Shown piece by piece: positions 33,607-61,584 of a DNA stretch of 64,000 bases. Positions within the stretch are counted from its first letter, which is position 1. Every line of letters starts with the position of its first letter. The stretch comes from a virus. Lineage: Duplodnaviria > Heunggongvirae > Uroviricota > Caudoviricetes. The stretch lies in IMG/VR virus record IMGVR_UViG_3300012933_000323, positions 141,556-205,555 of that record; one strand, 5' to 3'. The notes beneath the pieces are model-generated. The model searched no databases and had not been told where the DNA came from. It worked only from the letters and a program-made list of their open reading frames with translations. The position numbers were made by a program, and so were the translations under genes.

Positions 33607-33614
33607 TATAAATA
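33607..33614 (+). promoter_or_regulatory. Late promoter TATAAATA
   Basis: Exact match upstream of the scaffold gene. Confidence 0.75.
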
Positions 33615-34387: not shown

Positions 34388-34395
34388 TATAAATA
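34388..34395 (+). promoter_or_regulatory. Late promoter TATAAATA
   Basis: Exact match upstream of the major capsid gene. Confidence 0.8.
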
Positions 34396-45425: not shown

Positions 45426-46069
45426 TTTTTAATGTCCTTCTCCATATCTGGAATGCCCTTTCCCTTCGTGGTGATACAGACAACCATTGTAGGTTGATCG
45501 CTGTTCTGTACGGCCTGTTGCATCACCTGATCTAACTTTTTACCATCATGCCCATCAACGGCAAACACGTTCCAATTATAAAGTCTTGCCATCGTAATAA
45601 CAGGTTCAACACTAATGATATCACTCGTGACACCTGTTACTTGCGCGTTATTATAGTCAACGGTACAAACGACATTCTTTAGTTGATGTTGCCCAATGAA
45701 TTGAATTGCTTCTAATGTATTACCCATTTGTAATGCAGCATCTGAAATGTTTACATATACTTTCTTATTTGTACACATTGCAATCCCAGAAGCTACGCCC
45801 AATGCATTACCAATTGTTTCTTCAGAATAATCAATGAACGGGATTTGATCGTGTTTTACACCCATGTGCAAGTTGTCGATATTATTTAACCAACCACGAT
45901 CTTTCCAAACTGTATAATATGCTTGCGCCCCAAATGGTTTGCCGATAATAATCTTGTCATCTTTTTTAATGTACTTAAAAACTGATTGCAAGTAATCAAC
46001 CATTGACAGTGCGCTAGCGATATGTCCAAGTTTATGTTTAAAACTATATTCTAAAATCTTCTTTCTCAT
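45356..46069 (-). CDS. Transketolase, TPP-binding (N-terminal) subunit
   Basis: GHIASALS, IGNALGVASGIA, ISDAALQMG..LEA, DYNNAQ, VDGHD, TTKGKG, WHY. Confidence 0.88.
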   Translation of the reverse strand: MRKKILEYSFKHKLGHIASALSMVDYLQSVFKYIKKDDKIIIGKPFGAQAYYTVWKDRGWLNNIDNLHMGVKHDQIPFIDYSEETIGNALGVASGIAMCTNKKVYVNISDAALQMGNTLEAIQFIGQHQLKNVVCTVDYNNAQVTGVTSDIISVEPVITMARLYNWNVFAVDGHDGKKLDQVMQQAVQNSDQPTMVVCITTKGKGIPDMEKDIKKWHYKKIESEMELQSLVQALQAT

Positions 46070-46917
46070 TCTAACTGTATTCTCGCATCTTCAACAACCG
46101 CATCTAAATTTGTTGTCTTTGTTTCAATTACATTATCTGACGTAAAACCAAAGTTACTTTGAATAATAAAGCCATCTTCTAATTTTAAAAATGATAATTC
46201 TTTGTACGGCAATTGAGGACTTAAGCATTCCTTCTTTAACCACATATACAAGCAACTAACATTATCTTTTGGGTTATTCCACATGCAATGTTTATACTTA
46301 AACACTCTGAGTTCATCCATGAACGATCTAAAATGTGGTGTACTTACTAATTTTAAAGCGTATGGTCTATTATCTTTTAAGCTATCTTCTAAAAGAATGT
46401 TGATGTACTTTAACCCAGCTCTTTGAAAATCTAATAAGATATCTAATAGATCATCTAAAAATTCTTTATTATCGAAGTCTGGCGTAAATACGATATTGAA
46501 TTTTAAATTAGGAATATTTTCAATTAAGTACTTGACATTTTTGATGTACTTATCATTGAATTTCTTTGTTCTTAATAATTCAGCATAATGAAATGAAACT
46601 GTAAAGTACAAATTATCCAGTCTTACATCTTTTACAAACTTCTCATATACTTTTAAAGGTAATGTACCGTTTGTATATGTCAGCATGTTTGTCTGCACTT
46701 GCACAGAATTAATTAGCTTTGCTATATTCTTTAAAAGTAGTGGCTCACCACCGTTAATGACCATGCATGTTTTTCTATCAGCTAAAGATGAAATCTTTAG
46801 GAAGTCGTCAATATAAGAATCAACGTCCTGTACACCTTGTTCAAAAAAGTTGTAGCAGTACGGGCACTTCAAATTACATTTTGTGAATAATTGATATTCA
46901 ATCATTTTCGTATTCAT
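46066..46917 (-). CDS. Radical SAM protein
   Basis: CNLKCPYC, GGEP, TNG, VSFH. Confidence 0.88.
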   Translation of the reverse strand: MNTKMIEYQLFTKCNLKCPYCYNFFEQGVQDVDSYIDDFLKISSLADRKTCMVINGGEPLLLKNIAKLINSVQVQTNMLTYTNGTLPLKVYEKFVKDVRLDNLYFTVSFHYAELLRTKKFNDKYIKNVKYLIENIPNLKFNIVFTPDFDNKEFLDDLLDILLDFQRAGLKYINILLEDSLKDNRPYALKLVSTPHFRSFMDELRVFKYKHCMWNNPKDNVSCLYMWLKKECLSPQLPYKELSFLKLEDGFIIQSNFGFTSDNVIETKTTNLDAVVEDARIQLE

Positions 46918-47957
46918 TTTTTATCCTTTGGTAAGTAAAAGTCCCCACCACAATAGTCCCATCTACACATTGTGCCCGACTTTCTTAGAATTGACATCTT
47001 TGTCAACGCAAGCCTGTCATTTAATAGGTTAGTAAAAATTCCATTACTAATTCCGTGTAGATTGTTTGTCATTGCTATACCACATTGGTATACGTTGCCA
47101 TCGCCATTAACATATATATTCTTTATGCCGGTATCGCAATGCCAACCAGTAAAATCAGCACCTCTTTGAAATAGTTCGTTAGTACTATATATTTTACCGT
47201 CTATCTCGTATTGTTGTTCACTTTTATTATGTTTCTTGTAAAATTCATAATGTATTGTCGCGGTCTCATCATTATGATCAAAGTCATAGCCGAAACCGTA
47301 AATCATTTCAGAGTGAGTTATGTTTGGGTATTCTAAAAAGCCCAAGACATAATTTCTAAATTCTTCGAGGTCTGTACCTTCAATTTGTTCTAACATAATA
47401 TCAAGACTATTAATATTTATGTTTTCTTTTTGAATGTAGTTAAAATTTCTAATGAATGATTCAAGTTTATATCTACGTTTAGTAAGCTCGATATAGTGGA
47501 ACGTGATATCTAAAATATCAACATTTTCCAAAATGTGTTTAATTTTACTAATTGATAGCGTTAAATTTGTCTGTAGTTCATTATATGCTGTGATGTTATA
47601 CTCTTCACCTTTTTGGTGGACATGCTTCATGATATTTATAATCTTTGGATGCCTAGTAGCTTCACCACCGTGGTAGTAAAAAATAACAGTCTTAATGCTT
47701 TCCTTTTTAAAGAATTCAAACATAGCATCAATACTGCCGATGATATCTTCATACTTATAGTGTTTTCCACCATGCCAATCGCAGTATGAACATGCTAAAT
47801 CACATGCCTCACTAATTCTAAATGTTACATGGTATGATGTCTCTTTTACCGGTACAAGATTTGCATTTATGATCTTATAGTATTTCTCTGGCTTAATTGC
47901 ACCAGCGTTTTGCAAATATGTGGTGTTCTGGTGTTTGAACTCTTCGCTTCTAATCAT
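46914..47957 (-). CDS. Radical SAM protein with twitch-like Cys tail
   Basis: CDLACSYC, GGEA, QTN. Tail CDTG..GNVYQC..CRWDYC. Confidence 0.9.
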   Translation of the reverse strand: MIRSEEFKHQNTTYLQNAGAIKPEKYYKIINANLVPVKETSYHVTFRISEACDLACSYCDWHGGKHYKYEDIIGSIDAMFEFFKKESIKTVIFYYHGGEATRHPKIINIMKHVHQKGEEYNITAYNELQTNLTLSISKIKHILENVDILDITFHYIELTKRRYKLESFIRNFNYIQKENININSLDIMLEQIEGTDLEEFRNYVLGFLEYPNITHSEMIYGFGYDFDHNDETATIHYEFYKKHNKSEQQYEIDGKIYSTNELFQRGADFTGWHCDTGIKNIYVNGDGNVYQCGIAMTNNLHGISNGIFTNLLNDRLALTKMSILRKSGTMCRWDYCGGDFYLPKDKK

Positions 47958-48835
47958 TTTGATCTTTCGTTAATATCTTTACAGAACTTATCTACTTCAT
48001 ACATAATAAATTCCGTGCTGTTCTCTCTACCAGAAATTTTAAAAGAACGGTAACCAAGCAATTGCGCTTTCTTTACCATATCTCTCGTGTATTGCATACC
48101 CATTCTTTCGCCAAACTTGTCTTTATGTTTTTGACAACCGGTATGAGGGTTGAACCAATCTAACCAACATTCCTCAACCTTAAAACAATGATCGTGGCCA
48201 AGTTCTTCCCACGGGTTTTTACTAATTGTGTTCTGCTCAGCAATCTTTGTAAAGTGCTCATGATAATGCGGGCACGAATACGCGCATGCATCGTTAATAA
48301 GCAACTCGTATTTCTGAACATCAACAGATTCATAGAACCTTGGTTCAAACACAACCTCAAACTTAGGAACAATCCAATCGTACTTTGACTCGAGGTCTTT
48401 ATATCTTGCTAGCAATTCATCGGTTACCTTCGTCTTGCTTGGGTGACCAGTGATTGAATAAATTAACTCAAAGTCGTAGTTCAATCTAAGATACTTTCTA
48501 AGATCTTCATTGATTAGTACAATTTTGTTTCTTACATTGTATTTCTTTTGTGATTCATCCATCCATTGAAGAAGTTCGTTCCCAACAGGATCTGATAAAT
48601 CAATTACGGGATTTGTAAATGTTAAAGATATAGTAATACCAAACTTGTTGTATCTTTCAATTGTATCTTGTGTTAACTTAATATTTCTATTGATTCTACC
48701 ACCATTCCATTGGCATAAGTTCGGCCCCTCATATACATTAAAAGCAATATTCTTATTTTTAAGTTTATAGATTGGTAAGTGCTTAATGAATGCATCGTAA
48801 TGTACGACTGCACCAGCAACATTTAAGTTTATCAT
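47954..48835 (-). CDS. U32-family Fe-S protein (UbiU/UbiV/TrhP/RlhA-like)
   Basis: WNGGR, ELLINDACAYSCP, additional Cys, SFKISGRE (compare KIEGR). Confidence 0.7.
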   Translation of the reverse strand: MINLNVAGAVVHYDAFIKHLPIYKLKNKNIAFNVYEGPNLCQWNGGRINRNIKLTQDTIERYNKFGITISLTFTNPVIDLSDPVGNELLQWMDESQKKYNVRNKIVLINEDLRKYLRLNYDFELIYSITGHPSKTKVTDELLARYKDLESKYDWIVPKFEVVFEPRFYESVDVQKYELLINDACAYSCPHYHEHFTKIAEQNTISKNPWEELGHDHCFKVEECWLDWFNPHTGCQKHKDKFGERMGMQYTRDMVKKAQLLGYRSFKISGRENSTEFIMYEVDKFCKDINERSK

Positions 48836-48844
48836 ATTGTCCTT

Positions 48845-49606
48845 TTACATTATGAAGCAATGATCATTTGGGCAAATGTCATGGTTATCTCTATATGAAC
48901 ATGTGTAAGATCTAAGCATAGGATCAAACAGTACATAAGTTTCTTTGTACATGCAAGGTTTGCCTTTTGGTGACCATACACCCTTCATCTGGTTTTCCCA
49001 ATTGAAACTCCTATTGCCATGTTCAAAATTAACAAATCTACCAACGACGCTTTGACGTAATTCGTTATATTCAAATAGATATTTATTTACGTCCACACCT
49101 TTGAATCCAGCAACTGGCACAAGCCTTAGCTTTTCTCTTGGGAAAACCTTGGAAAGATCTTTATAATAATCAATTGATATCTTCCCCATGAACATAATGT
49201 CAACTCTTTTAATTAGATGTTCTAATCTAACAAGTTCATCTATGTACTTTTGTTTATTCTTTATTTCTGTTGGATGAACAGACACCTGTACTTTTTCATT
49301 AATCTTTTCAATTCTTTTTGGTAAACTAAAATTTGTCTGAATAACGTACTTCATTTGTACTTCATTTAGTTTTTGAATAATTTCGCCAAAGAACGGATGC
49401 GCAAATGGTTCACCACCAAATAGAAATAGCTCAACATCTGGATATTTTTCTTTTAGTGTTTCAATGAATGCATTTACTTTGGCCTTATCTTTCTCAAAAA
49501 GAATAGGTGTAGGTAATGCCGAGTTTCTGGAATTAACACAGTACTCACATTTAAAATTACAATCTAAAGTTACTTCCCATTCAACGATCATAGTAAAACC
49601 TTCCAA
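48845..49606 (-). CDS. Radical SAM protein with Cys tail
   Basis: CNFKCEYC, FGGEP, QTN, VSVHP. Tail PC..TC..ICPNDHC. Confidence 0.9.
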   Translation of the reverse strand: MEGFTMIVEWEVTLDCNFKCEYCVNSRNSALPTPILFEKDKAKVNAFIETLKEKYPDVELFLFGGEPFAHPFFGEIIQKLNEVQMKYVIQTNFSLPKRIEKINEKVQVSVHPTEIKNKQKYIDELVRLEHLIKRVDIMFMGKISIDYYKDLSKVFPREKLRLVPVAGFKGVDVNKYLFEYNELRQSVVGRFVNFEHGNRSFNWENQMKGVWSPKGKPCMYKETYVLFDPMLRSYTCSYRDNHDICPNDHCFIM

Positions 49607-50427
49607 TTAAAGGTATCACATACACAGCCATATCCTGAGCAAGATGTCTTTTTGAATGATAGTCCATCTTTAATATGACCTAAGTCAACAGGATTATTGC
49701 ACAACGCGGTAATACGACCATCGTACTTGATTCTAACTACCGCTAGTTCACAGATAACATTTCTATTCATCGCGATGTTAATCAAATCTTCGTCAATACT
49801 CTCCTGAGGGGTGTAAACTTTATCGTCAATAGTATCGAACTGATTGATTACATTGTTCCTATACATCTCTTTAATCTTTGGATTTCTAATATCAGCTTCA
49901 ATACCATTATCACCATGAACAAATTGAATCTTGTAATTAACTTTATTTTCTATCAACCATAAAGAGTGCTCATACATTAAGTCAATATTGTCTTTACTAA
50001 TAATAAGTAAAGGTTCTATCTTATCACGTAATAATAAAATGTTGTGTTTAACCCAGTGATGCTTACTACTATCATGCCAAGATACGATAAACTTAGCGTT
50101 GATGTCTTTTACGATGTCAATGAATCTTTCGGGATAACTTAAATTTGTGTAAATCGTTACTGGATATTTTACACGTTCAGTGAACTCTTTTACCTTCTCT
50201 GGAATTAATAGAGGATCACCACCAAGAAGTGATACTTTTAAATTACCAGTGAATTCATTAACTGACTTAATTACTTGCTCATACACATCTTCATTAAACA
50301 TTAACCGATTATCCAACTTATCGAGGATATAACAATACGGGCATCTATTATTACATGCCATAGTCATATCGTAATCAATACTGTAGAATCCTTTATTTTG
50401 CAGGTTCATCTGCTGCGGTTTGCGCAT
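49588..50427 (-). CDS. Radical SAM protein with Cys tail
   Basis: CNNRCPYC, LGGDP, YTN, VSWH. Tail IC..LC..SCSGYGCVCD. Confidence 0.9.
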   Translation of the reverse strand: MRKPQQMNLQNKGFYSIDYDMTMACNNRCPYCYILDKLDNRLMFNEDVYEQVIKSVNEFTGNLKVSLLGGDPLLIPEKVKEFTERVKYPVTIYTNLSYPERFIDIVKDINAKFIVSWHDSSKHHWVKHNILLLRDKIEPLLIISKDNIDLMYEHSLWLIENKVNYKIQFVHGDNGIEADIRNPKIKEMYRNNVINQFDTIDDKVYTPQESIDEDLINIAMNRNVICELAVVRIKYDGRITALCNNPVDLGHIKDGLSFKKTSCSGYGCVCDTFNWKVLL

Positions 50428-51346
50428 TTCTTACCTTCTTTAGTTTCAATAACCCGTCACAATTACATTCTTGGTGTGGACAAATCATCGGTTGAATTTC
50501 ACCAATTCTTTTAAAGTAATCCAAGTCTCTTAATAATAAAGATGTCTCGGTGTTTTCGGGTTTACAGAACTTAACAACGTTACCGTGAACATCAACCTCA
50601 TAGTTATTATTCCAGCAAGACCATCCTTTGAACTTTGTTAATCCGTACTTGTAAACTTCATAATCATTAAATAGTTCATCGTTATATTCAATGTCTTTAG
50701 GTAGTTCCTCAAACTCTTTAAAGAATTCCCACGCCTCTTCTTTATATTTGTATAAGCGCCTGTCCCATTTTGTGTGAACATAATGAGGGTGAATCTTTAC
50801 GCCAAGTGATTGGATATCCTTAGCCATTTTCTGAGCTTTTGCCCAGAACTTTTTATTTGGATGTAGTAGAATGTTTACTTTTAATTTACCACCCTTTTCT
50901 AAAATGTATTTCACATTCTGAACAAATCGCTCTTCGCTTGTGCAATCAGCTGGGTGATAACTAAATAAAAATGCAACGCCATCGGTTTCAATAGTTCTTA
51001 AATCTTTCTCACCGTTTGTTGTTACATACACTCGATTAAATTTTTCTAATTTTCTAATCTTTTTGATGATGTAATTATAGTGCGGCGCAATCGTTGGTTC
51101 ACCACCAAGTAATCCAAGATTGAATGGTAACGTGCTGCGGCTTAATGCCTCAATTACTTTATCAATTGTGTCTTTGCTTGCGATTTTATTCCAATCTTTG
51201 CCGTAGTTATTTCGTGCGTAGCAGTACCCACACTTTAACTGGCAAATAGTTACAACGTCCCAGTGAACATTTAGATGATTTACATTTTGATCTAAATGCC
51301 CCTGTGTGGAGTAATCTTCCATTTTAGGAATACTAAGTCGTGCCAT
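50393..51346 (-). CDS. Radical SAM protein with Cys tail
   Basis: CQLKCGYC, LGGEP, TTNG, FSYHP. Tail SCW..FC..ICPHQECNCD. Confidence 0.9.
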   Translation of the reverse strand: MARLSIPKMEDYSTQGHLDQNVNHLNVHWDVVTICQLKCGYCYARNNYGKDWNKIASKDTIDKVIEALSRSTLPFNLGLLGGEPTIAPHYNYIIKKIRKLEKFNRVYVTTNGEKDLRTIETDGVAFLFSYHPADCTSEERFVQNVKYILEKGGKLKVNILLHPNKKFWAKAQKMAKDIQSLGVKIHPHYVHTKWDRRLYKYKEEAWEFFKEFEELPKDIEYNDELFNDYEVYKYGLTKFKGWSCWNNNYEVDVHGNVVKFCKPENTETSLLLRDLDYFKRIGEIQPMICPHQECNCDGLLKLKKVRNAQTAADEPAK

Positions 51347-51917
51347 AATAGTTTGTGCTCTCTGGGAATGAGATATTATCTCCGCCGTCTGTTGTTTGGA
51401 TATAAAGAACTTTGTGTAAAAGCAATTTTCTTGCGCCCTTATTTAATAAAAATTCTATAAGTTTTCTATCGTTATGAATATGACTATCTTCTGGGTATTC
51501 CCATTGATTAACTAATTCACGCTTCATTATAAATTGACCTAACTGGAGAACTTCATCTTTAGCGCATTTAGCAATCCAATTATCGTTCCAACTTGGGTAA
51601 TACAATCCGTGAATAATGTCGTAACCATTTAAGTAGTTCATAACTTCATAGAACGAATCAGTCAAGTAGTCGTCATCTTCTAGATAATAAATGAACTCGC
51701 CTTTAGCATTTAATAATAATGATTCGTATATACCAGATAGATTATCAAACTGGTTATAGAAGTATTTTACTTGGCCGTGTTGTACTTCATATATATCATT
51801 ACTATCATTATTCACTAGGATTTCAACGTCTTTAGGAATATGCTTAAGTGCTGACAATAAACATCTATTAAATAGGCCAGGTCTTTTATGTGTAGGAATT
51901 AAAATACTAAGTTTCAT
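51333..51917 (-). CDS. Glycosyltransferase family 2 (GT-A)
   Basis: SILIPTHKR, EILVNND, AKGEFIYYLEDDD. Confidence 0.88.
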   Translation of the reverse strand: MKLSILIPTHKRPGLFNRCLLSALKHIPKDVEILVNNDSNDIYEVQHGQVKYFYNQFDNLSGIYESLLLNAKGEFIYYLEDDDYLTDSFYEVMNYLNGYDIIHGLYYPSWNDNWIAKCAKDEVLQLGQFIMKRELVNQWEYPEDSHIHNDRKLIEFLLNKGARKLLLHKVLYIQTTDGGDNISFPESTNYYGTT

Positions 51918-52950
51918 AGAATCCTTTTCTATAAAAATTCACCTCATGAATTTTATCGCCAGGTTGTGGTTTGAATTCATTATTTGGTAATTGCTTCTCA
52001 ATGCCGTCACAAATAAAATAGTGCTTACACTCTTTACATTTATTGGACTTGTTATATCCGTTCATTCTAAAGTGTTTAGCCGCGTTATAAGATTGGCGTA
52101 ACTTTTCTTCTTTAGTATATGTTTTGGTAGTATCAATTTCGTGATTATAGATTGCAAGATTCCAATCGTATACATCATAGATATGTTGGTAATAGTTTAC
52201 AACATATCGTTCGTAACCTTCCATATAACAATACGGCACATAACGAACATTTATGTATTTTATATCATCTTTGATTAAATCAATACAGATCTTAATACTG
52301 TCTGTGATTTCTGAATATTGAACTTCGCGGAATGTACTGTTATCAGTGTCGTAGTTCAAGCAAATAAAATTTACTTCTAATGGATTGAGTTCACGCAGCA
52401 ATTCAACGTACTCATCGTGTAAGTACATATGATTTAAATCATACACCGTACAATTGATACGCACAACCATTTGTAATTCTATTGCATTCTTAATAGCTTG
52501 AATAATCTTCTTAAAAGATCCTTTCTTGCCAGTAATTTTGTCATGAATCTCTGGATTTGATCCGTGTACACTGAAAAGAATTTCGGTTAGGCCATGATCC
52601 TTAGACTTTTTAAGGAATTCCATATCGCAGAATTTACCACCATGAGTTAAAGTACTCACGGTCATTTCTTTTTCTTTACAGTACTTTAAAATGTTGAACC
52701 AGTTCGGTTCAACTGAAGACTCGCCACCACTTAAGTCAATTTGGCGGATGCCGTAATTAAAGATGTCGTCCACTCTTGACTTAATTACATCAAGAGAATC
52801 GCGCTCCATTAAGCGGTCTTTATAATAACAGAATTCACATTTATAGTTACACAAAAAGCCCGTGTTTAAACGAGCTCTTTCATTCATTGGTGTGTCCGTG
52901 TCTAGCTTTAGTCCAACTGTACTAAAAAGCTGCGAGCGTACTGATTTCAT
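51907..52950 (-). CDS. Radical SAM protein with C-terminal CxxCxxxxxC
   Basis: CNYKCEFC, SGGES, FSVHG..EIHDKIT, VPYC, CKECKHYFICDG. Confidence 0.92.
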   Translation of the reverse strand: MKSVRSQLFSTVGLKLDTDTPMNERARLNTGFLCNYKCEFCYYKDRLMERDSLDVIKSRVDDIFNYGIRQIDLSGGESSVEPNWFNILKYCKEKEMTVSTLTHGGKFCDMEFLKKSKDHGLTEILFSVHGSNPEIHDKITGKKGSFKKIIQAIKNAIELQMVVRINCTVYDLNHMYLHDEYVELLRELNPLEVNFICLNYDTDNSTFREVQYSEITDSIKICIDLIKDDIKYINVRYVPYCYMEGYERYVVNYYQHIYDVYDWNLAIYNHEIDTTKTYTKEEKLRQSYNAAKHFRMNGYNKSNKCKECKHYFICDGIEKQLPNNEFKPQPGDKIHEVNFYRKGFYET

Positions 52951-53812
52951 CTGTTTCCTTCAAATCAAGATTTACGCCTTTGTCAAGGTCGTTCCGTCTT
53001 ACCATTAATCCCCTATCTTTACTAATATCGTAAACGCCATCATAAATAACTTCTTTATTATAGTGTTTACACTCAACAATCAATCTTGATGAACAATCAA
53101 TTTTTGTCTTATTGGTTGATCCTGTATAGATGAATGTATCGAATAGTTCATATAGGTTATCAGCAGGAACTTTGTGTAATGTCATATTTGATGGTACTTC
53201 CATCTGAACATTGGTTAGCACAACGTATTGCTTATAGTTATATTTATTTGCAATTGATTCTAGGTTTTCGAAAGTTAACTTTCGCATGTTACTTGTACAA
53301 TAAATTGCAGCAGTATCATCAAATGTTTTATTAATTTCTTTGAACTTACTTAAAAGTAGTTTCTTTTTGTAATGTACAGAGTTCGGCAATGGGTCATACA
53401 AATCATAATCCTGCAAAACTATATCAGCCTTGTCAAGAAATTCATCATCGCAACATCTTAAGAAAATCTTTCTTTTGCAAATGATGTCCGCATCAAATGT
53501 TCTAATAGAACCATCAACAAAGATGATGTCATTAGCTATTAGTGCTTTGGGATTATAGTGATAGAATGTGCATGCTTCATATGCCTGAAGCTCTTCTGTT
53601 GAAAAGTCGTATTTGCTTAAAGCAACATTGACTTGGTCTTTTGATATGCCGTCAGCAATCATAATGCAGACGGATTTATTTTTATGAAACTTCAAATGAT
53701 AGAAATATTCAATCATCTCAAATAGATGACCAGATATTCCATGATTTGACTCCCAAGATGTGGTAAGGGTTATGTCGAATTTCTTCAACATAACCAATGG
53801 TGTCCTTCTCAT
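52922..53812 (-). CDS. Hypothetical protein, possibly GT-B-fold glycosyltransferase
   Basis: N-terminal HGISGHLFE. C-terminal FDTFIY...DCSSRLIVECKHYNKEVI resembles the GT-B (D/E)x7E nucleotide-binding motif. Confidence 0.45.
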   Translation of the reverse strand: MRRTPLVMLKKFDITLTTSWESNHGISGHLFEMIEYFYHLKFHKNKSVCIMIADGISKDQVNVALSKYDFSTEELQAYEACTFYHYNPKALIANDIIFVDGSIRTFDADIICKRKIFLRCCDDEFLDKADIVLQDYDLYDPLPNSVHYKKKLLLSKFKEINKTFDDTAAIYCTSNMRKLTFENLESIANKYNYKQYVVLTNVQMEVPSNMTLHKVPADNLYELFDTFIYTGSTNKTKIDCSSRLIVECKHYNKEVIYDGVYDISKDRGLMVRRNDLDKGVNLDLKETDEISTLAAF

Positions 53813-53821
53813 TTATATCTT

Positions 53822-54910
53822 TCAGATTTTTAGAATTTCGTCTCGACTTAACGGTGAATACCCAAGATCATTGAAAAGATTCTTTGGGAACTGCTTACCA
53901 ATTTTTGCCATTAGTGTAGGTCTGTCAACACCGTACTTTACTTCTTCATCGATATCATCAGATGGTACATAGTACTCAGCCAATGTTAAGTCCATGAACA
54001 GATCGTTAAATGGTGCGAATTCTTGTTCACTCATTAGAATATCTGTGTTAGCTTCGTAGTTACTAATCCACTTATTTGCACCGCGATAGTCGTCGCGTAC
54101 ATCAATAGAGATGCCTTCAGAAATATGTAGAACACCATCTGCCAATACGTCTTCAAACTTTACAACCTTTACATCTGAACGTTTTGCAAGTTCAACAGCA
54201 TTAATTGCAGCTTCATAGAATCGTTCAATATCTAATGCTTCAGTAAGATCTGGGCTTGTTGGTGAATTCCATTTTGTGTCTGGCTTTTTATTCATTAACC
54301 ATGCAACAGATGGGTTTCTGATAATGCTAACAACATGAACTTCTTCATCTGGCAATGCTGCCTTCAGCGCATCGATAAAGTATGAACCAAATGTTCCAGT
54401 AATTACCTTAACTGGGTATGCAAAGTTTTTAATGTTGTTCAGAACATCATCAAAATCGTGCGGGTGAAGCAAACGGTTTTGTTCTTCTGCATGCATATAG
54501 CTTGGGGTGTCGATCAGATCAAAATCAACATCCAATGAACAGAATCTATTTACGAAGTGGTTAACTTTAATACCATCTTCAAAGATGTCTTTATTCAATT
54601 TTAGAAAATACTCAACAACCTCAGGATCATTGTGCAATAGATCTTCTATCCCGTCGTCTTCACCACGATTCACCGCAGGTAATTCACCGGTTGAAGTAAG
54701 TTCAACTGGAGTTTCTTCTACACCAATGACGCCACCCTCAATAGAGCTTAGCTTATATACTAGCTTTCCGCTGCCATCGTGAATCTTAATGTCTGAATGA
54801 GAAAAATCACAAACATAACCTTTATATTCAAAGGTGTTCAAATTAGCCAGGATAATCCTAGATAAGAATTTTTTATTAATTGCTTGTGTTCCAGTCAATA
54901 CGATAACCAT
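53822..54910 (-). CDS. Hypothetical protein with sulfotransferase-like motifs
   Basis: N-terminal IVLTGT strand, VSIIRNP and VVKFEDVL resemble the RxP and YEDL motifs of sulfotransferase folds. Confidence 0.4.
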   Translation of the reverse strand: MVIVLTGTQAINKKFLSRIILANLNTFEYKGYVCDFSHSDIKIHDGSGKLVYKLSSIEGGVIGVEETPVELTSTGELPAVNRGEDDGIEDLLHNDPEVVEYFLKLNKDIFEDGIKVNHFVNRFCSLDVDFDLIDTPSYMHAEEQNRLLHPHDFDDVLNNIKNFAYPVKVITGTFGSYFIDALKAALPDEEVHVVSIIRNPSVAWLMNKKPDTKWNSPTSPDLTEALDIERFYEAAINAVELAKRSDVKVVKFEDVLADGVLHISEGISIDVRDDYRGANKWISNYEANTDILMSEQEFAPFNDLFMDLTLAEYYVPSDDIDEEVKYGVDRPTLMAKIGKQFPKNLFNDLGYSPLSRDEILKI

Positions 54911-54911
54911 A

Positions 54912-55307
54912 TTATCTCCTTAGATAACCCTCAACAATAGAATTTACAGATTCCGTATCTTCGTAATTTTGTAATTGTTGAAGGCTTTCAATAATTTTTG
55001 TGTACTCATCCTTTTTCTTCTGGATGATTTTAATATTATCTAACAAAGTAATATATTGTTCTAAATCTTCAATGAGTGTTTCATCACCGGTTTCAATAAT
55101 CTCAATATATTTTTCTTCTTTGTTTTTCTCAGTAATGAAAATACCAATAGCAGCAAATTTGTTATTCAACTGCATAAAGGTAACAAAATCTAGTAACGTG
55201 AAAGTAAGAAGGTCATCACCAAGGATTCCTCTTACTTTTGTCTTTACTGCTTTGGCTGCCTTACCAGCGTATGTATTTGTATCAATTCCTTCTACTTCTT
55301 CTTTCAT
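54912..55307 (-). CDS. Hypothetical helical protein
   Basis: 131-aa ORF with AAGGA RBS, directly downstream of the Cys-rich gene. Confidence 0.7.
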   Translation of the reverse strand: MKEEVEGIDTNTYAGKAAKAVKTKVRGILGDDLLTFTLLDFVTFMQLNNKFAAIGIFITEKNKEEKYIEIIETGDETLIEDLEQYITLLDNIKIIQKKKDEYTKIIESLQQLQNYEDTESVNSIVEGYLRR

Positions 55308-55315
55308 ACATTTCC

Positions 55316-55936
55316 TTAAATCGTGATAGGTAGTTTACTATAGTTTACCATATAGAATCCATTCTTATCTTTAGATAAAGCGGACTCATATTTAGTTCCA
55401 AGCAGTTCCTGTGCAATTACGCCTTTGTGAGTTATTTTTGAATCCCACTTGTAATTCCAAGTGTATAACTTCAAACCGTTTTGCATACCAATGAATTTGA
55501 TATTCATCTTTAATCGTTCATCACTGTAGTTACAGTTACATGTACATGCATAGTCACAGTTACAAGTGCAATAGTTACAGTTACAGGTACAGTAGTTACA
55601 GTTACATAAACAAACCGCGCCGCTGGCTTTAATCTTGTCAATGATATAGTTAACGTGACTTGCAGCAATCACTGTATTTGAATCAACATAACCATCGTTC
55701 CAATAATAATTAATATATTGTGATAGCGTGTTCAAGTCCTGAACTTCAATGATGTCATATAGACCCGTGTCTGGCACACCACCAGCTCCACGTCTAGATC
55801 TTTCAGAATTAATATTGTTTCTTAGTTCTACAAATTTAGCAGCTTCAATGGTTGCGCCAGAACCAACATAACCGATAGAATAAACTACAGCGTCTGTGCC
55901 GTCAGTTCCGTAGACGTCGATGCTCGTGGTTCCCAT
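55316..55936 (-). CDS. Cys-rich repeat protein fused to a peptidase S74 intramolecular chaperone; candidate substrate of the rSAM cluster
   Basis: ...CLCNCNYCTCNCNYCTCNCDYACTCNCNY-SDERLKMNI...LYTWNYKW...GVIAQEL...GFYMVNYSKL. AGGAG RBS. Confidence 0.85.
   Translation of the reverse strand: MGTTSIDVYGTDGTDAVVYSIGYVGSGATIEAAKFVELRNNINSERSRRGAGGVPDTGLYDIIEVQDLNTLSQYINYYWNDGYVDSNTVIAASHVNYIIDKIKASGAVCLCNCNYCTCNCNYCTCNCDYACTCNCNYSDERLKMNIKFIGMQNGLKLYTWNYKWDSKITHKGVIAQELLGTKYESALSKDKNGFYMVNYSKLPITI
55526..55612 (-). repeat. Four tandem ~21-bp repeats encoding CxCNC(N/D)Y
   Basis: Plus-strand tagttacagttaca units. 12 Cys within residues 109-135. Confidence 0.9.
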
Positions 55937-56350
55937 TTAAATCTCCTGTTTTAGAAAATCCATGTTTTCCTTGAGTTTGTTGTCTGCAAGGAATTTTTCA
56001 TAGTCGTCGATGGATTCACCATCTTTATTATTTATACTTGTAGTATTACCAATGATAAAGTCGATGGTCGCAGCGTCTGCTTCCTTAGAACTTACAAAAT
56101 CACCATTTTGGTTATTAATGTAATCTTTTTCTAAGATGTGCGTAACTAACTGTTCTAAATCGTATCCAAGGAGTTTAGAGATGAGTTCTAACTTTTCTGA
56201 GATATCCAATTCAGTTTTACTATTGGATGCTTCCATAGTATCTACAGCACTTTTAAAGTTAACCAAAAGAAGTGAACCGATTGCTTCGTTTTCGTCTTTA
56301 ATCTCTTTGATCAATTCAAAGATTTTGTTCATTTTGTCAATAATAGTCAT
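55937..56350 (-). CDS. Hypothetical acidic protein
   Basis: 137-aa ORF coupled to both neighbours. Confidence 0.7.
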   Translation of the reverse strand: MTIIDKMNKIFELIKEIKDENEAIGSLLLVNFKSAVDTMEASNSKTELDISEKLELISKLLGYDLEQLVTHILEKDYINNQNGDFVSSKEADAATIDFIIGNTTSINNKDGESIDDYEKFLADNKLKENMDFLKQEI

Positions 56351-57213
56351 TGTACTTTTTCCTTAAAGTCATTAAATTTTGGTGCGATTACGTCGTTCTT
56401 ATATGTGGTTACGTTACCTTCATCGGTAAAATAAGTCTTAATATCTTTTCGTGAACCACATCCGTTACATGCATCGCAGAACAGTGCACAAACTGGTATA
56501 GTAATATCTCTATTAAACCAATCTTGTCTAAGATCTTCTTTCGCCTGTTTGAGTAATTTTAACATATCATCAGTTAAAGTACTCCAAGCTATAGATGTAA
56601 TGATTCTTTGTGGCTTGATTGTTTTAGCAATCAGCTTGATGTCCGCATAGAGGTTATTTATATTGCCGCTGTGCATGGTGTAGCGAAGTCTAAACGGCAC
56701 GTTATGATCGTTTAGTTTCTTAAACACCTTGATCATAAACGGTGTACTTGGTTTGCCATTATGCGTGATTCGTTCGCCATTACCAACACCATCAAAACTA
56801 ATATCCAACGATGTTAACCCAAGAATGTTGTACTTCAGTTTCTTATATCCAATAATGAAGTCATCCTTCAAAAATCGAATACCGTTTGTACTAATATTAA
56901 AGTGGACATTCTTTTTCTTACTGTATGCGTAATCCATGAAGTACAGCGCGTTCTCCCACTGTAATGTTACTTCACCACCAAATAGAACAAACAATGTCTG
57001 AGTGTCAGGATCTTCACGAGCAATAATTGCATCAATAGAATCTCTAATCTGTTCTTGTGATAGTACTTGTTCAGGTCGACCAATTAGATCTTCATAACAG
57101 TACGTACACGCAAGATTACATCTATTTGTAAAATAGATGACATTAACACCAGAATTCTCGATAATTGGTTTAGTATCATCGATGTAAAAATCTTTAGGCG
57201 TTAGTTTTGTCAT
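56347..57213 (-). CDS. Radical SAM protein (anSME/peptide-maturase-like core, short Cys tail)
   Basis: TNRCNLACTYCY, FGGEV, STNG, ISFDG. Tail CALFCDACNGC. Confidence 0.92.
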   Translation of the reverse strand: MTKLTPKDFYIDDTKPIIENSGVNVIYFTNRCNLACTYCYEDLIGRPEQVLSQEQIRDSIDAIIAREDPDTQTLFVLFGGEVTLQWENALYFMDYAYSKKKNVHFNISTNGIRFLKDDFIIGYKKLKYNILGLTSLDISFDGVGNGERITHNGKPSTPFMIKVFKKLNDHNVPFRLRYTMHSGNINNLYADIKLIAKTIKPQRIITSIAWSTLTDDMLKLLKQAKEDLRQDWFNRDITIPVCALFCDACNGCGSRKDIKTYFTDEGNVTTYKNDVIAPKFNDFKEKVQ

Positions 57214-57476
57214 GCTAACCCTTTACCCTTTTTAATGATATAAGCCATGTCTGCCAGAAATCCAGCATAATCATAACTATAATCAAACAGGTGGTTTAGT
57301 CCGTCAGCGTTACCAACATACTTTGAGTCGACTTTTGCTCGACCTTTTCTTGCTTCTTCAATCTGAATTTGCAATTCTTCTGTTGATAGTACTTTGTCAG
57401 TAATAGGATTAACAACGTTCATCTCTACTTTTACAGGTACATCATCAACGATGCTTCGTAATTTTCTTCTTGCCAT
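57210..57476 (-). CDS. Hypothetical protein
   Basis: 88-aa coupled ORF. Confidence 0.65.
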   Translation of the reverse strand: MARRKLRSIVDDVPVKVEMNVVNPITDKVLSTEELQIQIEEARKGRAKVDSKYVGNADGLNHLFDYSYDYAGFLADMAYIIKKGKGLA

Positions 57477-57477
57477 A

Positions 57478-57807
57478 TTAGAAACTTACTGATGTACCAC
57501 AGCCGCAAGAACCTACTGCATTTGGGTTTTTAATGTTGAACTGTGAGCCCATTAAATCTGACACATAGTCAATCTCTGAACCAGCCAAGTAAGCTAAGCT
57601 CATTAGATCAATTGCTAAAATGCCACCCTTACCTGTTTCATACTGTTCTTCATCTTCTTCAAGGTCTTCCTTAGTTTCAAGGATACCCCAATCATACTTA
57701 AAGCCTGAGCAACCACCGCCGGCAATGTTCAAACTGACCGCATAAGCGTTATGCTCTTTGCAAATTTCATCAATCTTATCTTTTGCTGAATCTGTCATTG
57801 TAATCAT
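57478..57807 (-). CDS. A-type Fe-S carrier (HesB/IscA/ErpA family)
   Basis: GGGCSGFKY, YLAGSEIDY, NPNAVGSCGCGTS. Confidence 0.92.
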   Translation of the reverse strand: MITMTDSAKDKIDEICKEHNAYAVSLNIAGGGCSGFKYDWGILETKEDLEEDEEQYETGKGGILAIDLMSLAYLAGSEIDYVSDLMGSQFNIKNPNAVGSCGCGTSVSF

Positions 57808-57808
57808 T

Positions 57809-58951
57809 TTAGCACCTCTTGTCTAGTTTTTCGTTCATACCTTTGTCATCATGTTCGCCTGGATTAGCAAGCCACATCTTGACAACTTCGTGGAATGTTG
57901 GTACATCCCTTAATTCTCTTACAATTCTATGCGCTTCCATATAGTTAATGTGGAATAGTTCGCAGATAGAATCAACCGGTTTATTACCGTTCATAACTTG
58001 TGAATATGTACAACCTGCATTACATACTTGTTTTAAGTTACAATCCTGGCACTTATTATAATTAGCAGGATCAAATTCTTTTTGGTAATATTGGAAGCTG
58101 AAGTTCTCATCCATTTGCATAATTTTCTTTGATGCAAATCTGGCGCATGGATAGAATTCGCCAGAACTCATTAATACACCACCATGAGTTCCTGCAAAGC
58201 ACCCGAATGGGCGTTTGCCACGAATCAAACCATATAATGAATCTAAAACAGCAAGCTTAAATAGACCGATGCTACAGAACTTACCTTCTTTGATCTTTTG
58301 GATGTAAGAATCGCCAAGTCTGGTCAATTCTACTTTGTACTGCTTAATATCATCAATAGTCCAAACGTCATCACGAACTAATGAGAAGTCAGGGTGATCA
58401 ATGCCCCATTCCAATAAGAACTCAAAGTTCTCTGTCATGCTGGCAGAGTTTCCTGGCCAGATCATAACTTTACAACCGTTGGTCAAACTTTGAATGATTT
58501 CTTTCTTATGGTTGTACATATCAAGAATACCGTTAAATAATTCGCCGGTTTCTGGATTAGTGTTCTCCAATAATGGTAAGAGCGGTCGTGAATCATTTGA
58601 ACCCATACCGTCAAATGACCAAGATACACCGACATTGTTTTCTTTAATCCACTTTGCCTTTTCAGCGTCAACCATCGTTAAGTTTGTAATGATGTTGATA
58701 CCAGTATTTTTAGGATCTGCTTTTAAAATTGGCACAGCATATTGGATCAAGTCCCAATTCAGCATTGGTTCACCACCAAAGAACGATACATAGTAATCTT
58801 TATCACCAGATCGTTCCATTAGTGCATGTACATCCACAATACCTTTATCAAAGACTTCTTTGGTCATCCATGTTGGTCTATTTGCCACATAGCAATATGG
58901 GCAACCAAGGTTACATTTCTCAGTGACTGAGATTTCTAGTGTAAACGACAT
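57809..58951 (-). CDS. Radical SAM/SPASM domain protein
   Basis: CNLGCPYC, FFGGEP, SFDG. SPASM: CFAG..GEFYPC..CQDC..VCNAGC..IC. Confidence 0.93.
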   Translation of the reverse strand: MSFTLEISVTEKCNLGCPYCYVANRPTWMTKEVFDKGIVDVHALMERSGDKDYYVSFFGGEPMLNWDLIQYAVPILKADPKNTGINIITNLTMVDAEKAKWIKENNVGVSWSFDGMGSNDSRPLLPLLENTNPETGELFNGILDMYNHKKEIIQSLTNGCKVMIWPGNSASMTENFEFLLEWGIDHPDFSLVRDDVWTIDDIKQYKVELTRLGDSYIQKIKEGKFCSIGLFKLAVLDSLYGLIRGKRPFGCFAGTHGGVLMSSGEFYPCARFASKKIMQMDENFSFQYYQKEFDPANYNKCQDCNLKQVCNAGCTYSQVMNGNKPVDSICELFHINYMEAHRIVRELRDVPTFHEVVKMWLANPGEHDDKGMNEKLDKRC

Positions 58952-58960
58952 TCCTATCCT

Positions 58961-60139
58961 TTAAAATCGTACTTCGCAAGCTTTCTTTTCAGCTTGGATT
59001 GGTAACTGTTTTGCGACTGTCAATAGAGACTTATGAATGATGTCATTTAGTTTGAAGATCTTACAAAGGTTAACGTTCTTTGTAGTCCACTTCATTTCGT
59101 ATTCTTTCAACGGAACGATGTTAATCTTCTTCTTTGCTGTTTCTTTTGTGCTCGGTAAGTTGAATGAACCAGCTGGGCACTTCATACAGAACAAACTTTT
59201 ACAGCCTTGGCAATCATCATTCATATGATTGATCAGATACTTATATTTATCTGTAGCTTTATCAAGGATATCGACAATATCTTCATTATAGATATTACCA
59301 ATCTCGTGTTCTTGATGGTCTTCATACATTGTGCCATGGCATGGTGAAACTGCTCCATCAAGGTTAATGCTGAAGTAATTCACACCAGCAGAACACAATG
59401 CTCGACTATTTTGGAACCACCCAAATGAGTTAACTGGAAGTTTATGATCATAGATATGCTTAGCAATTTTAGCCAAACCATTCTTCAGATCTTCCATATA
59501 TTGCTCTGCATCTTCCTTAACATAATCTGAATATGTATCAGGTGTAGGGAAGTAATTTGCGTTACCAGGAATACTTACCACATCTACGAATGCTTCATAG
59601 ATTAAGTGGAATGTCCGTGGTGTAATTGTTGATTTGATAGAACGCTGAACACCAATTTCGCCAAGAACAGCAAACGCTTCTTTAACTAATTCTGATGTGC
59701 TACCATTTTTCTTGGTTAAGCGTTCAATGTCATTAATTGCTTTGCCATCATATGAGATTTGAATCGCAAGGCGATTCTGACCACGGTCATTTTGACCTAA
59801 TAGTTTATTAACAACTTTAATGGAATCTTTGTACTTCTTGATGTACGTGCCGTTTGTATAGAAGAAGAATTTCACGTTCTTTCTCTTGGCATAGAATGTC
59901 ATCAAGTCCAGACAGTAGTTCATGTTCATCATTGGTTCACCGCCCCAAAAGGAGATGTCAATTTGTTCGTCTGGTTTCTTTTCAAGAACACTGCTAATGA
60001 ACTTGATAATATCTTGAGTTTTTACGTCCGTTTTGGAGTTCTCAATTTTAGCGAGATCCGGCATTTCTGGATTATGGCCTTCACTGCAATATTTGCAACC
60101 TAAATTACAGGTGCTTGTTACGTTAATGTCTAAGTTCAC
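58961..60139 (-). CDS. Radical SAM/SPASM domain protein
   Basis: CNLGCKYC, FWGGEP, YTNG, ISYDG. SPASM: CSAG..GAVSPC..CQGC..FCMKC..LC. Confidence 0.93.
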   Translation of the reverse strand: MNLDINVTSTCNLGCKYCSEGHNPEMPDLAKIENSKTDVKTQDIIKFISSVLEKKPDEQIDISFWGGEPMMNMNYCLDLMTFYAKRKNVKFFFYTNGTYIKKYKDSIKVVNKLLGQNDRGQNRLAIQISYDGKAINDIERLTKKNGSTSELVKEAFAVLGEIGVQRSIKSTITPRTFHLIYEAFVDVVSIPGNANYFPTPDTYSDYVKEDAEQYMEDLKNGLAKIAKHIYDHKLPVNSFGWFQNSRALCSAGVNYFSINLDGAVSPCHGTMYEDHQEHEIGNIYNEDIVDILDKATDKYKYLINHMNDDCQGCKSLFCMKCPAGSFNLPSTKETAKKKINIVPLKEYEMKWTTKNVNLCKIFKLNDIIHKSLLTVAKQLPIQAEKKACEVRF

Positions 60140-60231: not shown

Positions 60232-61545
60232 TTAAACCTTAACCATCACTGTTCCGTTTTCTGAATCAGCTAACGCTACACCGACGATGTTTAATTTTTC
60301 TGCATCTAACAAATCAAATTTGTTAACGCCGATTACTTTACCATCTTCGAAAGCAACGCAATACTGTCCTTTCTTAACTGGTCCGTGGCATTTAACTGGT
60401 ACTTTACCTTTCAACGCTACATATTGGAAACCATCACCAGCTTCAGAGTTCAACATTAAACCTGGATTAGCGGAGATTACGCCAGCTAAGGCACCGCCTT
60501 GGAATAACGTGATTTCTTTATCGCCACCAACTTCTACAACTGTACCAACTTCGTATTGTACATCTGATTCGTATTTTTCTGCCAAGTCGGCATAACGAGC
60601 CTGTGTAGCAACACCAGAGAATGTACCAGCATATAGCACGTTAGAATATGGATTATACGCTAAGTTTGCGTCATTACGAATACGCTGCTGAGCAGAACCA
60701 ATACCAGAGAAGTTGATGTAATACGTACCGTTTGTAGCATCATCACGTGTTACATATGTGTAATCAGAATATGTACTTGATGTAGCATTACCTGCAAAGT
60801 TGTTACATGTGATTGTGTTTGTAGCTGGGTTAATCGTAATTTCATTGTCATGGAACATGTTCTGATTACCAGAACCGCCACTACCAACGAAGCTTAGGAA
60901 ATAGTTACCGTTACCATCACCTTCAGTGCTATAGATAGTTGAAGCGCTTGTTGCATTACCTGCAAAGTTAGCACATATGATAGTATTAGTACCTGGGTTT
61001 ACAAGAATTTCATTATCGTGAAATGCTTGTTGGTAACCAGTAGCACTACTACCAAAGAGACCCATTACATAGTTGCCGTTTGCATCAGTCTCTGTACTGT
61101 AAACCGTATCAGCCTTTTGCGAAGTACCGTATAAGTAGTTAGCAAAAATGCTGTTGAATTTTAAAGCAGATGTACCGATATCGCTTGAACTGGTAGTAAC
61201 TGGTGTAATTGTACCAGATACGTCAATGCTTGTACTATGTACATATGACGCAAATAAGTCATTGAAACGTTTTGATGATGAACCGAGATCATATGCATTA
61301 TCCGTTGACGGAATCATATGACCAGATAATGTAGCATCACCGGTTGCATTTACATACCTAACGTCCATCTCGGTTTGGCTGATAATCTTTCGTACCGCTT
61401 TATCGAAAATGTTGTTAGAAATTTTTGTAAATACATCACCAGTAGTCTTTTCAAAGGCAGTACCTGTTGCTGCACTAATAAAGTCTCCATCTCCAACAAG
61501 TGAAGAACCGTCGGCCTTATAAGTAAAATTTTGATATATAGACAT
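60232..61545 (-). CDS. Tail fibre protein with internal repeats and C-terminal autoprocessing/chaperone-type domain
   Basis: YDLGSSSKRF repeats and three ~57-aa repeats ending FAGNATS. C-terminal ARYADLAEKY...GVISANP..VALKGKVPVKC. Confidence 0.8.
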   Translation of the reverse strand: MSIYQNFTYKADGSSLVGDGDFISAATGTAFEKTTGDVFTKISNNIFDKAVRKIISQTEMDVRYVNATGDATLSGHMIPSTDNAYDLGSSSKRFNDLFASYVHSTSIDVSGTITPVTTSSSDIGTSALKFNSIFANYLYGTSQKADTVYSTETDANGNYVMGLFGSSATGYQQAFHDNEILVNPGTNTIICANFAGNATSASTIYSTEGDGNGNYFLSFVGSGGSGNQNMFHDNEITINPATNTITCNNFAGNATSSTYSDYTYVTRDDATNGTYYINFSGIGSAQQRIRNDANLAYNPYSNVLYAGTFSGVATQARYADLAEKYESDVQYEVGTVVEVGGDKEITLFQGGALAGVISANPGLMLNSEAGDGFQYVALKGKVPVKCHGPVKKGQYCVAFEDGKVIGVNKFDLLDAEKLNIVGVALADSENGTVMVKV

Positions 61546-61576: not shown

Positions 61577-61584
61577 TATTTATA
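61577..61584 (-). promoter_or_regulatory. Late promoter TATAAATA
   Basis: Exact match upstream of 61545. Confidence 0.7.

Follow-up and report, generated by a model that had tools for sequence, protein, structure and literature searches.

A candidate viral radical SAM cassette for maturation of a cysteine-heptad protein with an S74-type C-terminus

Introduction

Why does a phage keep the gene of a small cysteine-repeat protein in one operon with three radical S-adenosylmethionine (rSAM) enzymes? The question was raised by a 64-kb window (the whole stretch of DNA analyzed) that forms the end of IMG/VR record IMGVR_UViG_3300012933_000323, a 205,555-bp sequence rated complete by CheckV. The Cys-heptad protein was named CYS, the three enzymes were named rS1, rS2, and rS3, and the small partner open reading frames (ORFs) were named u88, u131, and u137.

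We propose, with a probability of about 60%, that the operon is a viral protein-maturation cassette, in which the rSAM enzymes would modify the Cys core of CYS, the S74 domain would remove itself, and a part of a virion fiber or whisker would result. Cross-linking of a particle protein by enzymes of the phage itself is probable. The points in favor are the anatomy of CYS, its linkage to the rSAM genes, rearranged gene orders, a phyletic match in cultured phages, the enzyme type, the C-terminal endings of the family, a homolog in virions, and the precedent of the archaeal enzyme CrpC.

Results

CYS has an N-terminal domain, a Cys array, and an S74 domain

A first-pass annotation of the window had described CYS as a 206-aa protein with four Cys repeats followed by SDERLK and an S74 chaperone. 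Translation, Pfam, and AlphaFold 2 (AF2) confirmed this description, and the 12 Cys were located in residues 109–137. The array reads GAV-CLCNCNY-CTCNCNY-CTCNCDYA-CTCNCNY-SDERLK, with one extra Ala ahead of the last unit. The AF2 model of residues 12–108 (pLDDT, the predicted local distance difference test score, about 85–94) contained helices at residues 32–48, 65–75, and 92–106. E45, R48, and R49 of this N-domain were invariant in the homolog alignment, and the domain gave weak PHROG tail-fiber matches. For the array itself, the pLDDT was below 50 and no secondary structure was predicted; it is flanked by two confident domains.

The second of these, residues 138–206, had a pLDDT of about 95. 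Pfam Peptidase_S74 matched residues 138–178 with 28.1 bits against a cut-off of 22, and a genome search found the S74 domain in a single copy in the whole genome (30.2 bits). Foldseek/BFVD searches matched this part to annotated viral intramolecular-chaperone domains (root-mean-square deviation 1.3–2.5 Å, ~70 residues); a Foldseek search of the PDB with CYS gave no match. An S-D-x-x-x-K motif (S138...K143) stands at the start of the domain and was kept in homologs. The Ser and Lys of this motif are catalytic in S74 domains. A complex prediction with three CYS copies scored 0.00, which counts neither way on a trimer.

The CYS family comprised at least 679 metagenomic proteins of similar length (query residues 1–140), and only 24 long-form homologs were found. 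In homologs that were about 45% identical elsewhere, every array Cys was invariant, and Asn and Tyr were invariant or nearly so. The 21-bp DNA units of the CYS array differ by synonymous changes. This near-invariance and the synonymous differences indicated that the array is not a product of chance. Unit and ending counts were made on the best 120 homologs of CYS. Exactly four heptads were present in 94 of them. Position 2 was Thr (78%), position 4 was Asn (87%) or Asp (10%), position 6 was Asn (92%), and position 7 was Tyr (97%). In other family members, arrays reached 25–40 units.

In 185,579 prokaryote species, with one genome each, only five metagenome-assembled genome (MAG) contigs carried CYS, and on four of these its neighbors were the same rSAM genes, indicating that the family is essentially viral.

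CYS is linked to the rSAM genes

IMG/VR was scanned with the CYS family alignment. The scan gave 36 loci, and their ORFs were searched with the window proteins. The 36 loci and the five MAG contigs were collapsed to 32 lineages at <80% identity (L-numbers denote loci and P-numbers denote family proteins, as labeled in the metagenomic comparison). Orthologs of rS1, rS2, and/or rS3 were present at the locus in 28 of the 32 lineages, nearly always on the same strand. The nearest one was 4–3164 nt from CYS, usually 4–600 nt. In a 29th lineage (L027), PF04055 genes were located ~850 nt downstream of CYS, which brings the lineages with rSAM genes within 10 kb of CYS to 29/32. The three remaining lineages are on records that are 9–23% complete or on a MAG contig, and the absence of rSAM genes there is not informative.

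At least four gene orders kept the same partners: rS1-rS2-u88-rS3-u137-CYS-u131, rS2-rS3-rS1-CYS-u131, rS2-rS1-CYS-u131, and CYS-rS1-rS2-(u88)-rS3. In distant lineages, the other six rSAM genes, the glycosyltransferase gene, and the U32-family gene of the window were gone or replaced, and rS1/2/3, CYS, and u131 persisted.

For the reverse test, a scan was performed with the rS2-ortholog alignment, which gave 78 loci. Nearly all rS2-ortholog loci with at least 31% identity had a CYS gene. The exceptions were three contigs that ended too soon (L038, L063, and L076), an 8.6-kb contig starting just upstream of rS2 with no CYS downstream (L066), a locus with a CYS copy whose repeat was deleted or collapsed (L051), and two loci with CYS elsewhere on the same record (L072 and L074). 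The heptad array was found in 0 of 45 control loci that contained more distant phage rSAM/SPASM genes (≤28% identity). One control locus, L091, encodes, 1.7 kb beyond its rSAM gene, a Cys-rich protein of degenerate form that has SDERLK and S74.

Cultured phages gave the same picture. Among 50,697 records, 15 of Campylobacter Firehammervirus contained both the rS2 ortholog and the CYS homolog, and no other record contained either. The Vibrio phages, which are closest by capsid, had neither. The tblastn search of CYS against cultured phages, with the repeat masked, returned S74 matches only; the Campylobacter link was found at the DNA level. The first-pass annotation had named homologs mostly without rSAM neighbors as a refutation of its idea; instead, homologs overwhelmingly had such neighbors. 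The reverse test and the controls agreed. These results indicated that the link between CYS and the rSAM genes is real and specific. The module is widespread in uncultured large myoviruses and is also present in culturable Campylobacter phages.

The adjacency might instead be inherited synteny. The three enzymes would then belong to the larger 19-kb sugar, halogenase, and rSAM cluster, their target would be a small molecule, a glycan, or a nucleic acid, and CYS would be a mere fiber-module neighbor. Six more rSAM genes, a GT2 gene, a U32-family gene, and sugar enzyme genes downstream are co-conserved in window-like loci, and the Campylobacter phages CP220 and CPt10 have 11–12 rSAM genes with no role assigned (Timms et al., PMC2853527), both of which this explanation would accommodate. 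We consider it quite unlikely. Distant lineages have lost the downstream enzymes or have others in their place, and yet rS1/2/3, CYS, and u131 stayed in shuffled orders. The phyletic match in cultured phages was exact, and control rSAM loci lacked CYS. By family, the three enzymes best matched maturases of peptides or proteins and not enzymes that act on sugars or nucleotides.

The enzymes resemble maturases of Cys-containing peptides and proteins

The CxxxCxxC radical SAM motif and a PF04055 match above the cut-off were found in rS1 and rS2. The seven invariant SPASM Cys of rS2 are C251, C269, C301, C304, C310, C314, and C330, and the equivalent seven were present in rS1 orthologs. The invariant Cys of rS3 are C242, C246, C249, and C252, which make up its CX3CX2CX2C motif. 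For all three enzymes, the best NCBIfam matches were maturases of Cys peptides or proteins: PapB, SCIFF, QhpD, CcpM, HxsB, and anaerobic sulfatase maturase. With the PapB-family model NF047865 (cut-off 340), rS2 scored 130 bits over its full length, rS1 scored 79, and the third score was 72. The match of rS1 to TIGR04463, the CrpC family, was 33 bits against a cut-off of 525. These scores below the cut-offs indicated that rS1–rS3 are relatives of the curated maturases, not members.

The nearest solved structure to rS2 was the thioether synthase CteB (5WGG, E 5e-18). The alignment starts at CteB residue 101, i.e., without the N-terminal RiPP leader-recognition element (RRE) of CteB (RiPP, ribosomally synthesized peptide that is post-translationally modified). 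The radical SAM motifs of the three enzymes start at residues 11, 13, and 32, which leaves no room for an N-terminal RRE.

Family members end in different self-removing or already freed forms

Three types of ending were seen among the 120 homologs: 68 had a long C-terminal domain (S74), 27 had a stub of ~12 residues, and 23 stopped exactly at CNY or CNYS. The stub reads S-D-x-R-L-K-x-x-I-x-Y-M and retains the Ser and Lys. Cleavage by S74 would be expected to produce the CNY/CNYS ending. At several stub-form loci, the remainder of the S74 domain has its own ORF of ~90 aa, in varying frames (Table 1). We know of no split intramolecular chaperone described before.

In P0122, P0125, P0127, and P0130, the array runs straight into a different domain, which starts with C-F-L-A-G-T-P-V. 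This domain had 273 homologs, in which Pfam called the aligned position Hom_end_hint, Hint, Vint, or Hint_2, and P0145 had a near-threshold Hint_2 match of its own. Searches of Pfam, NCBIfam, PDB sequences, and BLASTP gave no direct Hint call on P0122 or P0127, and the assignment is made via homologs only. The Hint-form CYS genes L131:10001-11563 and L132:10001-11392 are flanked by three to five rSAM genes. The forms ending at CNY(S), with split S74, and with Hint all retained rSAM neighbors.

Two unrelated self-cleaving modules, S74 and Hint, thus occupy the same position, which argues that release of the array C-terminus matters and is part of the function. The idea that the chaperone acts as a self-removing follower gained support from the CNY(S) endings (23/120), the split S74, and the Hint form. 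The RiPP-like architecture fits a follower that would be removed by S74 or Hint. Cleavage of a double-glycine-type leader at the conserved Gly before the array was considered and rejected, with no register match and no C39 peptidase.

Other variants of the family were observed. Two to four tandem CYS paralogs per locus were present at L022:9965-12529, L007:8960-11017, L011:9314-10462, and L033:9887-11109. Their Cys arrays are near-identical and their middle regions are divergent, like multiple RiPP precursors or diversified fiber tips. Many distant CYS proteins begin with a second Cys/His-rich motif, M-A-C-x-G-H...C...H-x-G-Y (Table 1), which is missing from the window protein. In a close relative (L051:12662-13094), the middle of CYS, with the whole repeat in it, is missing; the N-terminal part stops and the S74 part follows. 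Either a deletion in nature or collapse of the repeat during assembly would account for this gap. A divergent homolog (L075:12427-12894) has six-residue units with two Cys each (C-T-C-N-V-D), and only two rSAM genes were seen at its locus. This single case is consistent with one enzyme per Cys register.

A CYS homolog was detected in Campylobacter phage virions

The Campylobacter CYS homolog is of the long form, with 520–534 aa and an internal array, and is without S74. A 21-bp intragenic repeat in CPT_0180/CPt10_1891 was reported apart from the rSAM excess of these phages, and the two were never connected (PMC2853527). We found that CPT_0180/CPt10_1891 is a CYS family member. In phage IBB_35, gene 3-9 (1605 nt, 60.3 kDa) was among 38 virion proteins detected by electrospray ionization tandem mass spectrometry, with 2.6% coverage (Carvalho et al., PMC3322345). 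By position and size, gene 3-9 was matched to the CYS homolog AEF56812. Some records label the Campylobacter homolog "putative N-acetylneuraminate pyruvate lyase" (L001:5391-6953 of phage WX1; also CP21_105); nothing was seen in favor of this name.

An rSAM-modified product that is not a virion part, such as a released or intracellular toxin, a signal, or a host-takeover factor with the N-domain as leader, is improbable. Such a product would follow RiPP-like logic, with a leader-like domain, tandem precursors, and a self-removing follower, and the virion detection concerns the long form, not the short form. However, no leader protease or exporter was found at any locus, S74 is typical of fibers and spikes, the module stands beside fiber genes, and the long-form homolog is in virions. 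The released-peptide fate that had been considered at first found no support.

The operon, its partners, and its Fe-S carrier

Upstream of CYS, on the same strand, the genes are u137, rS3, u88, the A-type carrier, rS2, and rS1, with gaps of −4 to 9 nt (Table 1). Pfam and NCBIfam thus bore out the first-pass annotation, which had placed two rSAM-SPASM enzymes, a third rSAM enzyme, and an A-type carrier upstream in the operon. The listed genes stood; the downstream u131 also belongs to the module, and the window has nine rSAM genes, not three (PF04055 genes: ten genome-wide, nine within 46066-60139).

Table 1. Positions of the genes and domains discussed. Window features are given in window coordinates; features of other loci are given after the locus label.
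Feature	Position	Strand	Basis
CYS, 206-aa Cys-heptad protein, putative substrate	55316..55936	(-)	ORF and translation
CYS N-terminal domain, residues 1-108: three helices, conserved ERxRRG motif	55613..55936	(-)	AF2, alignment
Four Cys heptads C-x-C-N-C-N/D-Y, residues 109-137, putative modified core	55526..55612	(-)	Translation, alignment
S74 intramolecular chaperone/autoprotease, residues 138-206 and stop, from S138-D-E-R-L-K143	55316..55525	(-)	PF13884, AF2, BFVD
rS1, radical SAM/SPASM, 392 aa	58961..60139	(-)	PF04055, PF13186, seven invariant SPASM Cys
rS2, radical SAM/SPASM, 380 aa	57809..58951	(-)	PF04055, seven invariant SPASM Cys
A-type Fe-S carrier (ErpA/IscA-like), 109 aa, lineage-specific accessory	57478..57807	(-)	PF01521, TIGR00049
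u88, 88 aa, retained between rS2 and rS3 by several lineages	57210..57476	(-)	phmmer in related loci
rS3, radical SAM, 288 aa, C-terminal CX3CX2CX2C, without full SPASM	56347..57213	(-)	PF04055
u137, 137 aa, conserved in window-like lineages only	55937..56350	(-)	ORF, synteny
u131, 131 aa, all-helical partner directly after CYS in most lineages	54912..55307	(-)	Synteny, AF2
Fiber gene with Peptidase_G2-type autocleaving C-terminus, often directly upstream of module	60232..61545	(-)	Pfam, PHROG, synteny
Split-S74 ORFs directly after CYS	L016:10220-10531, L017:10515-10790, L020:10561-10842, L032:10459-10755		
Split-S74 ORFs near CYS	L027:5529-5798, L037:5974-6249		
CYS with N-terminal Cys/His motif	L010:9836-10492, L011:9314-10462, L016:9650-10207, L020:9938-10549, L023:9890-10984		

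The A-type carrier matched TIGR00049 with 89.8 bits (cut-off 58.8), and its three conserved Cys were present (C33 and C-G-C near the C-terminus). Among related loci, it was seen in the nearest relative, L038, only. Because it is missing from almost all related loci, the carrier is an accessory.

Another explanation for the array is a metal-, Fe-S-, or disulfide-bearing structure on the S74 trimer axis, which would not be an rSAM substrate. The T4 gp37 needle, whose HxH motifs bind iron, is the model. The linkage would then arise from a cluster or electron reservoir for the Fe-S enzymes, or from a common need for Fe-S supply. A total of 12 Cys (3 × 4), a constant number of units, and near-invariant Asn and Tyr speak for it. 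The A-type carrier in the operon and the high Fe-S demand of ten rSAM genes also agree with it, as do the N-terminal Cys/His motif of some homologs and the precedent of metallothioneins, whose CxC motifs bind metals. Nevertheless, we regard this explanation as unlikely. The carrier is missing from nearly all related loci, rS1–3 alone track CYS while other rSAM genes vary, and arrays reach 25–40 units. The self-cleaving ends, the fiber-gene neighbors, and the virion detection would be odd for a cytoplasmic cluster donor, and AF2 gave no ordered model of the array, a weak point. As a long shot, the array would be more than cross-linked: once assembled with help from S74 or Hint, three chains could present at least 36 Cys on a three-fold axis and carry stacked Fe-S or metal clusters. 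This would be a metallo-fiber tip built with rSAM-type enzymes (and the carrier here), for redox- or metal-dependent adhesion or sensing.

The AF2 model of u131 (pLDDT 92.5) had five helices and no Cys, and T59, Y67, and L82 were invariant. Foldseek against the PDB and a VIA-align wide PDB search were uninformative (best Z 7.4, generic helical bundles), and an Atlas look-up gave unnamed clusters. Of the partners of CYS that are not enzymes, u131 was co-conserved the most faithfully, and it may be a chaperone or adaptor. For u88, no match was found in Pfam, NCBIfam, or Atlas, and phmmer gave matches in related loci. For u137, no family match was found.

The T4-type late promoter motif TATAAATA was located 93 nt before CYS in the window. 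A separate late promoter for CYS was dropped; the motif was kept in only 4 of 46 related loci. In the window, the motif occurred 18 times against 8.4 expected (sites include 34388-34395, 33607-33614, 21767-21774, 22158-22165, and 61577-61584), often 20–45 nt ahead of structural gene starts, including those of the capsid gene and the Peptidase_G2-end fiber gene. A scan for sigma-70 promoters and terminators was at background level.

The phage is a large T4-like aquatic myovirus whose genes include those for a baseplate, a capsid, and an aerobic class Ia ribonucleotide reductase. In capsid protein, it shared 75% identity with the Vibrio phages pv27, phiKT1024, and Va1 (191–195 kb) and 50% identity with the Campylobacter Eucampyvirinae. 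The tail-fiber genes directly upstream of the module encode the Peptidase_G2-end fiber, a tail assembly chaperone, and a 491-aa fiber. A second block (46066-53812) contains the six other rSAM genes, a GT2 glycosyltransferase gene, a U32-family gene, and two uncharacterized ORFs. This block was co-conserved in window-like lineages only and is probably a separate or add-on pathway.

Discussion

In the maturation mechanism that we favor, the operon rS1-rS2-(Fe-S carrier)-u88-rS3-u137-CYS-u131 would make a 206-aa precursor of three parts. The two SPASM rSAM enzymes and rS3 would act on the flexible 29-residue Cys core. The most likely chemistry would be thioether bridges from Cys sulfur to carbon, onto the conserved Thr, Asn, or Tyr; it was proposed by analogy with CteB, PapB, QhpD, and CrpC. 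An arrangement of one enzyme per Cys register, with three registers and three enzymes, is speculative. The S74 domain, or the split S74 or Hint, would assist assembly, trimerize, and cut itself off after Ser138. A small fiber or whisker protein of the virion would then have ...CNCNYS as its free C-terminus, at the end of a cross-linked and oxidation-proof tail. We infer the modification of CYS by the enzymes, the chemistry, the order of the steps, the trimerization, and the cleavage from gene content and models.

Several points weigh against this mechanism. The near-invariant Asn and Tyr and the fixed four units are likewise compatible with a metal-binding or beta-solenoid structure of precise fold. 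The score for every curated maturase family was far below its cut-off. Neither an RRE, which the first-pass annotation had suggested looking for, nor another recognition domain was found in the enzyme N-termini, in the all-helical fold of u131, or by family matches of u88 and u137. In the vicinity of CYS at L010, L035, L016, and L020, one or two enzymes were seen and not all three, and in Campylobacter phages the rS2 ortholog is ~30 kb from CYS. The linkage may be partly inherited, many of the loci being from related large myoviruses. The virion detection came from one study, at 2.6% coverage, and concerned a long-form homolog.

If the proposal is true, this would be the first case found of a virus maturing its own particle protein by radical SAM chemistry. 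The reach of RiPP-type cross-linking, so far small antibiotics and one archaeal protein (2026), would then include virion architecture. The 11–12 radical SAM genes of Campylobacter phages, a puzzle since 2010, would also gain a concrete explanation that can be tested. Processing of a precursor by a recurring end that removes itself (S74, split S74, or Hint), with no separate protease, would be a new design principle. For peptide engineers, Cys heptads laddered by thioethers could be of interest as scaffolds that are compact and oxidation-proof.

Comparison with known systems

S74 domains trimerize and self-release in endosialidase tailspikes and T5 pb1 fibers, and they are typical of fibers and spikes. 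CYS shares with these proteins the Pfam match, the S-D-x-x-x-K motif at the junction, and the C-terminal position on a fiber-type protein. A difference is that the segment upstream of S74 in CYS is a 29-residue Cys array, not a triple beta-helix, and that CYS is tiny. In addition, the CYS family includes members with S74 divided between two genes or with Hint in its place. T4 gp37 and metallothionein, the basis of the metal explanation, also have periodic potential metal-ligand residues, and gp37 has a trimeric fiber tip. The ligands in CYS would be Cys, not the His of gp37, and both known systems are without enzyme partners.

PapB/PapA (freyrasin) and CteB/CteA (SCIFF, 5WGG) are the best family and structure matches of rS1–3. 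Similar to the phage module, they have SPASM auxiliary clusters, process repeated Cys motifs, and have the enzyme adjacent to the substrate. In contrast, the phage enzymes score far below the equivalog cut-offs, showed no RRE, number two to three, and are viral. The phage substrate has 206 aa versus a peptide of 40–50 aa, and a leader protease and exporter are missing.

QhpD is a SPASM rSAM enzyme that makes several intra-protein Cys thioethers in QhpC, the small structural subunit of quinohemoprotein amine dehydrogenase. Its family model, TIGR03906, was among the top matches of the phage enzymes, below the cut-off. Unlike the phage module, QhpD/QhpC is bacterial and periplasmic, forms Cys-to-Asp/Glu links, and has no repeats. 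Among viruses, the Firehammervirus phages CP220, CPt10, and IBB_35 have the same heptad array, rS1 and rS2 orthologs, and a capsid 50% identical to that of the window phage. They differ in the long form with its internal array, the lack of S74, and more dispersed genes.

CrpC/CrpA is the closest characterized system. In Methanococcus voltae, the 28.8-kDa protein CrpA has an N-terminus that resembles a leader, together with ten repeats that contain Cys, and the SPASM enzyme CrpC introduces ranthionine thioethers into it (Dieter et al. 2026, PMC13692751). That paper names QhpD/QhpC as a parallel and does not mention phages. As in the phage module, the SPASM rSAM gene adjoins a protein-sized substrate with a folded or leader-like N-terminus and a C-terminal Cys-repeat array, and AlphaFold confidence over the repeat is low. 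The CrpA thioethers were shown by mass spectrometry, with iodoacetamide labeling and reductive desulfurization in deuterium, and CrpC turns over SAM faster in the presence of CrpA (PMC13692751). CrpC has an RRE and is a member of TIGR04463, for which rS1 scored far below the cut-off. CrpA has a 17-residue repeat with CxxQ/D motifs, is archaeal, is served by one enzyme, and is without a self-cleaving end or virion context. Full-text literature searches found no description of the heptad motif or of phage rSAM enzymes paired with a Cys-repeat protein. The initial statement that no characterized system resembles this one therefore does not hold for archaea, where CrpC/CrpA is already known, and, as far as these searches reach, holds for viruses: what is new here is a candidate viral, virion-linked, self-cleaving version of rSAM Cys-repeat maturation.

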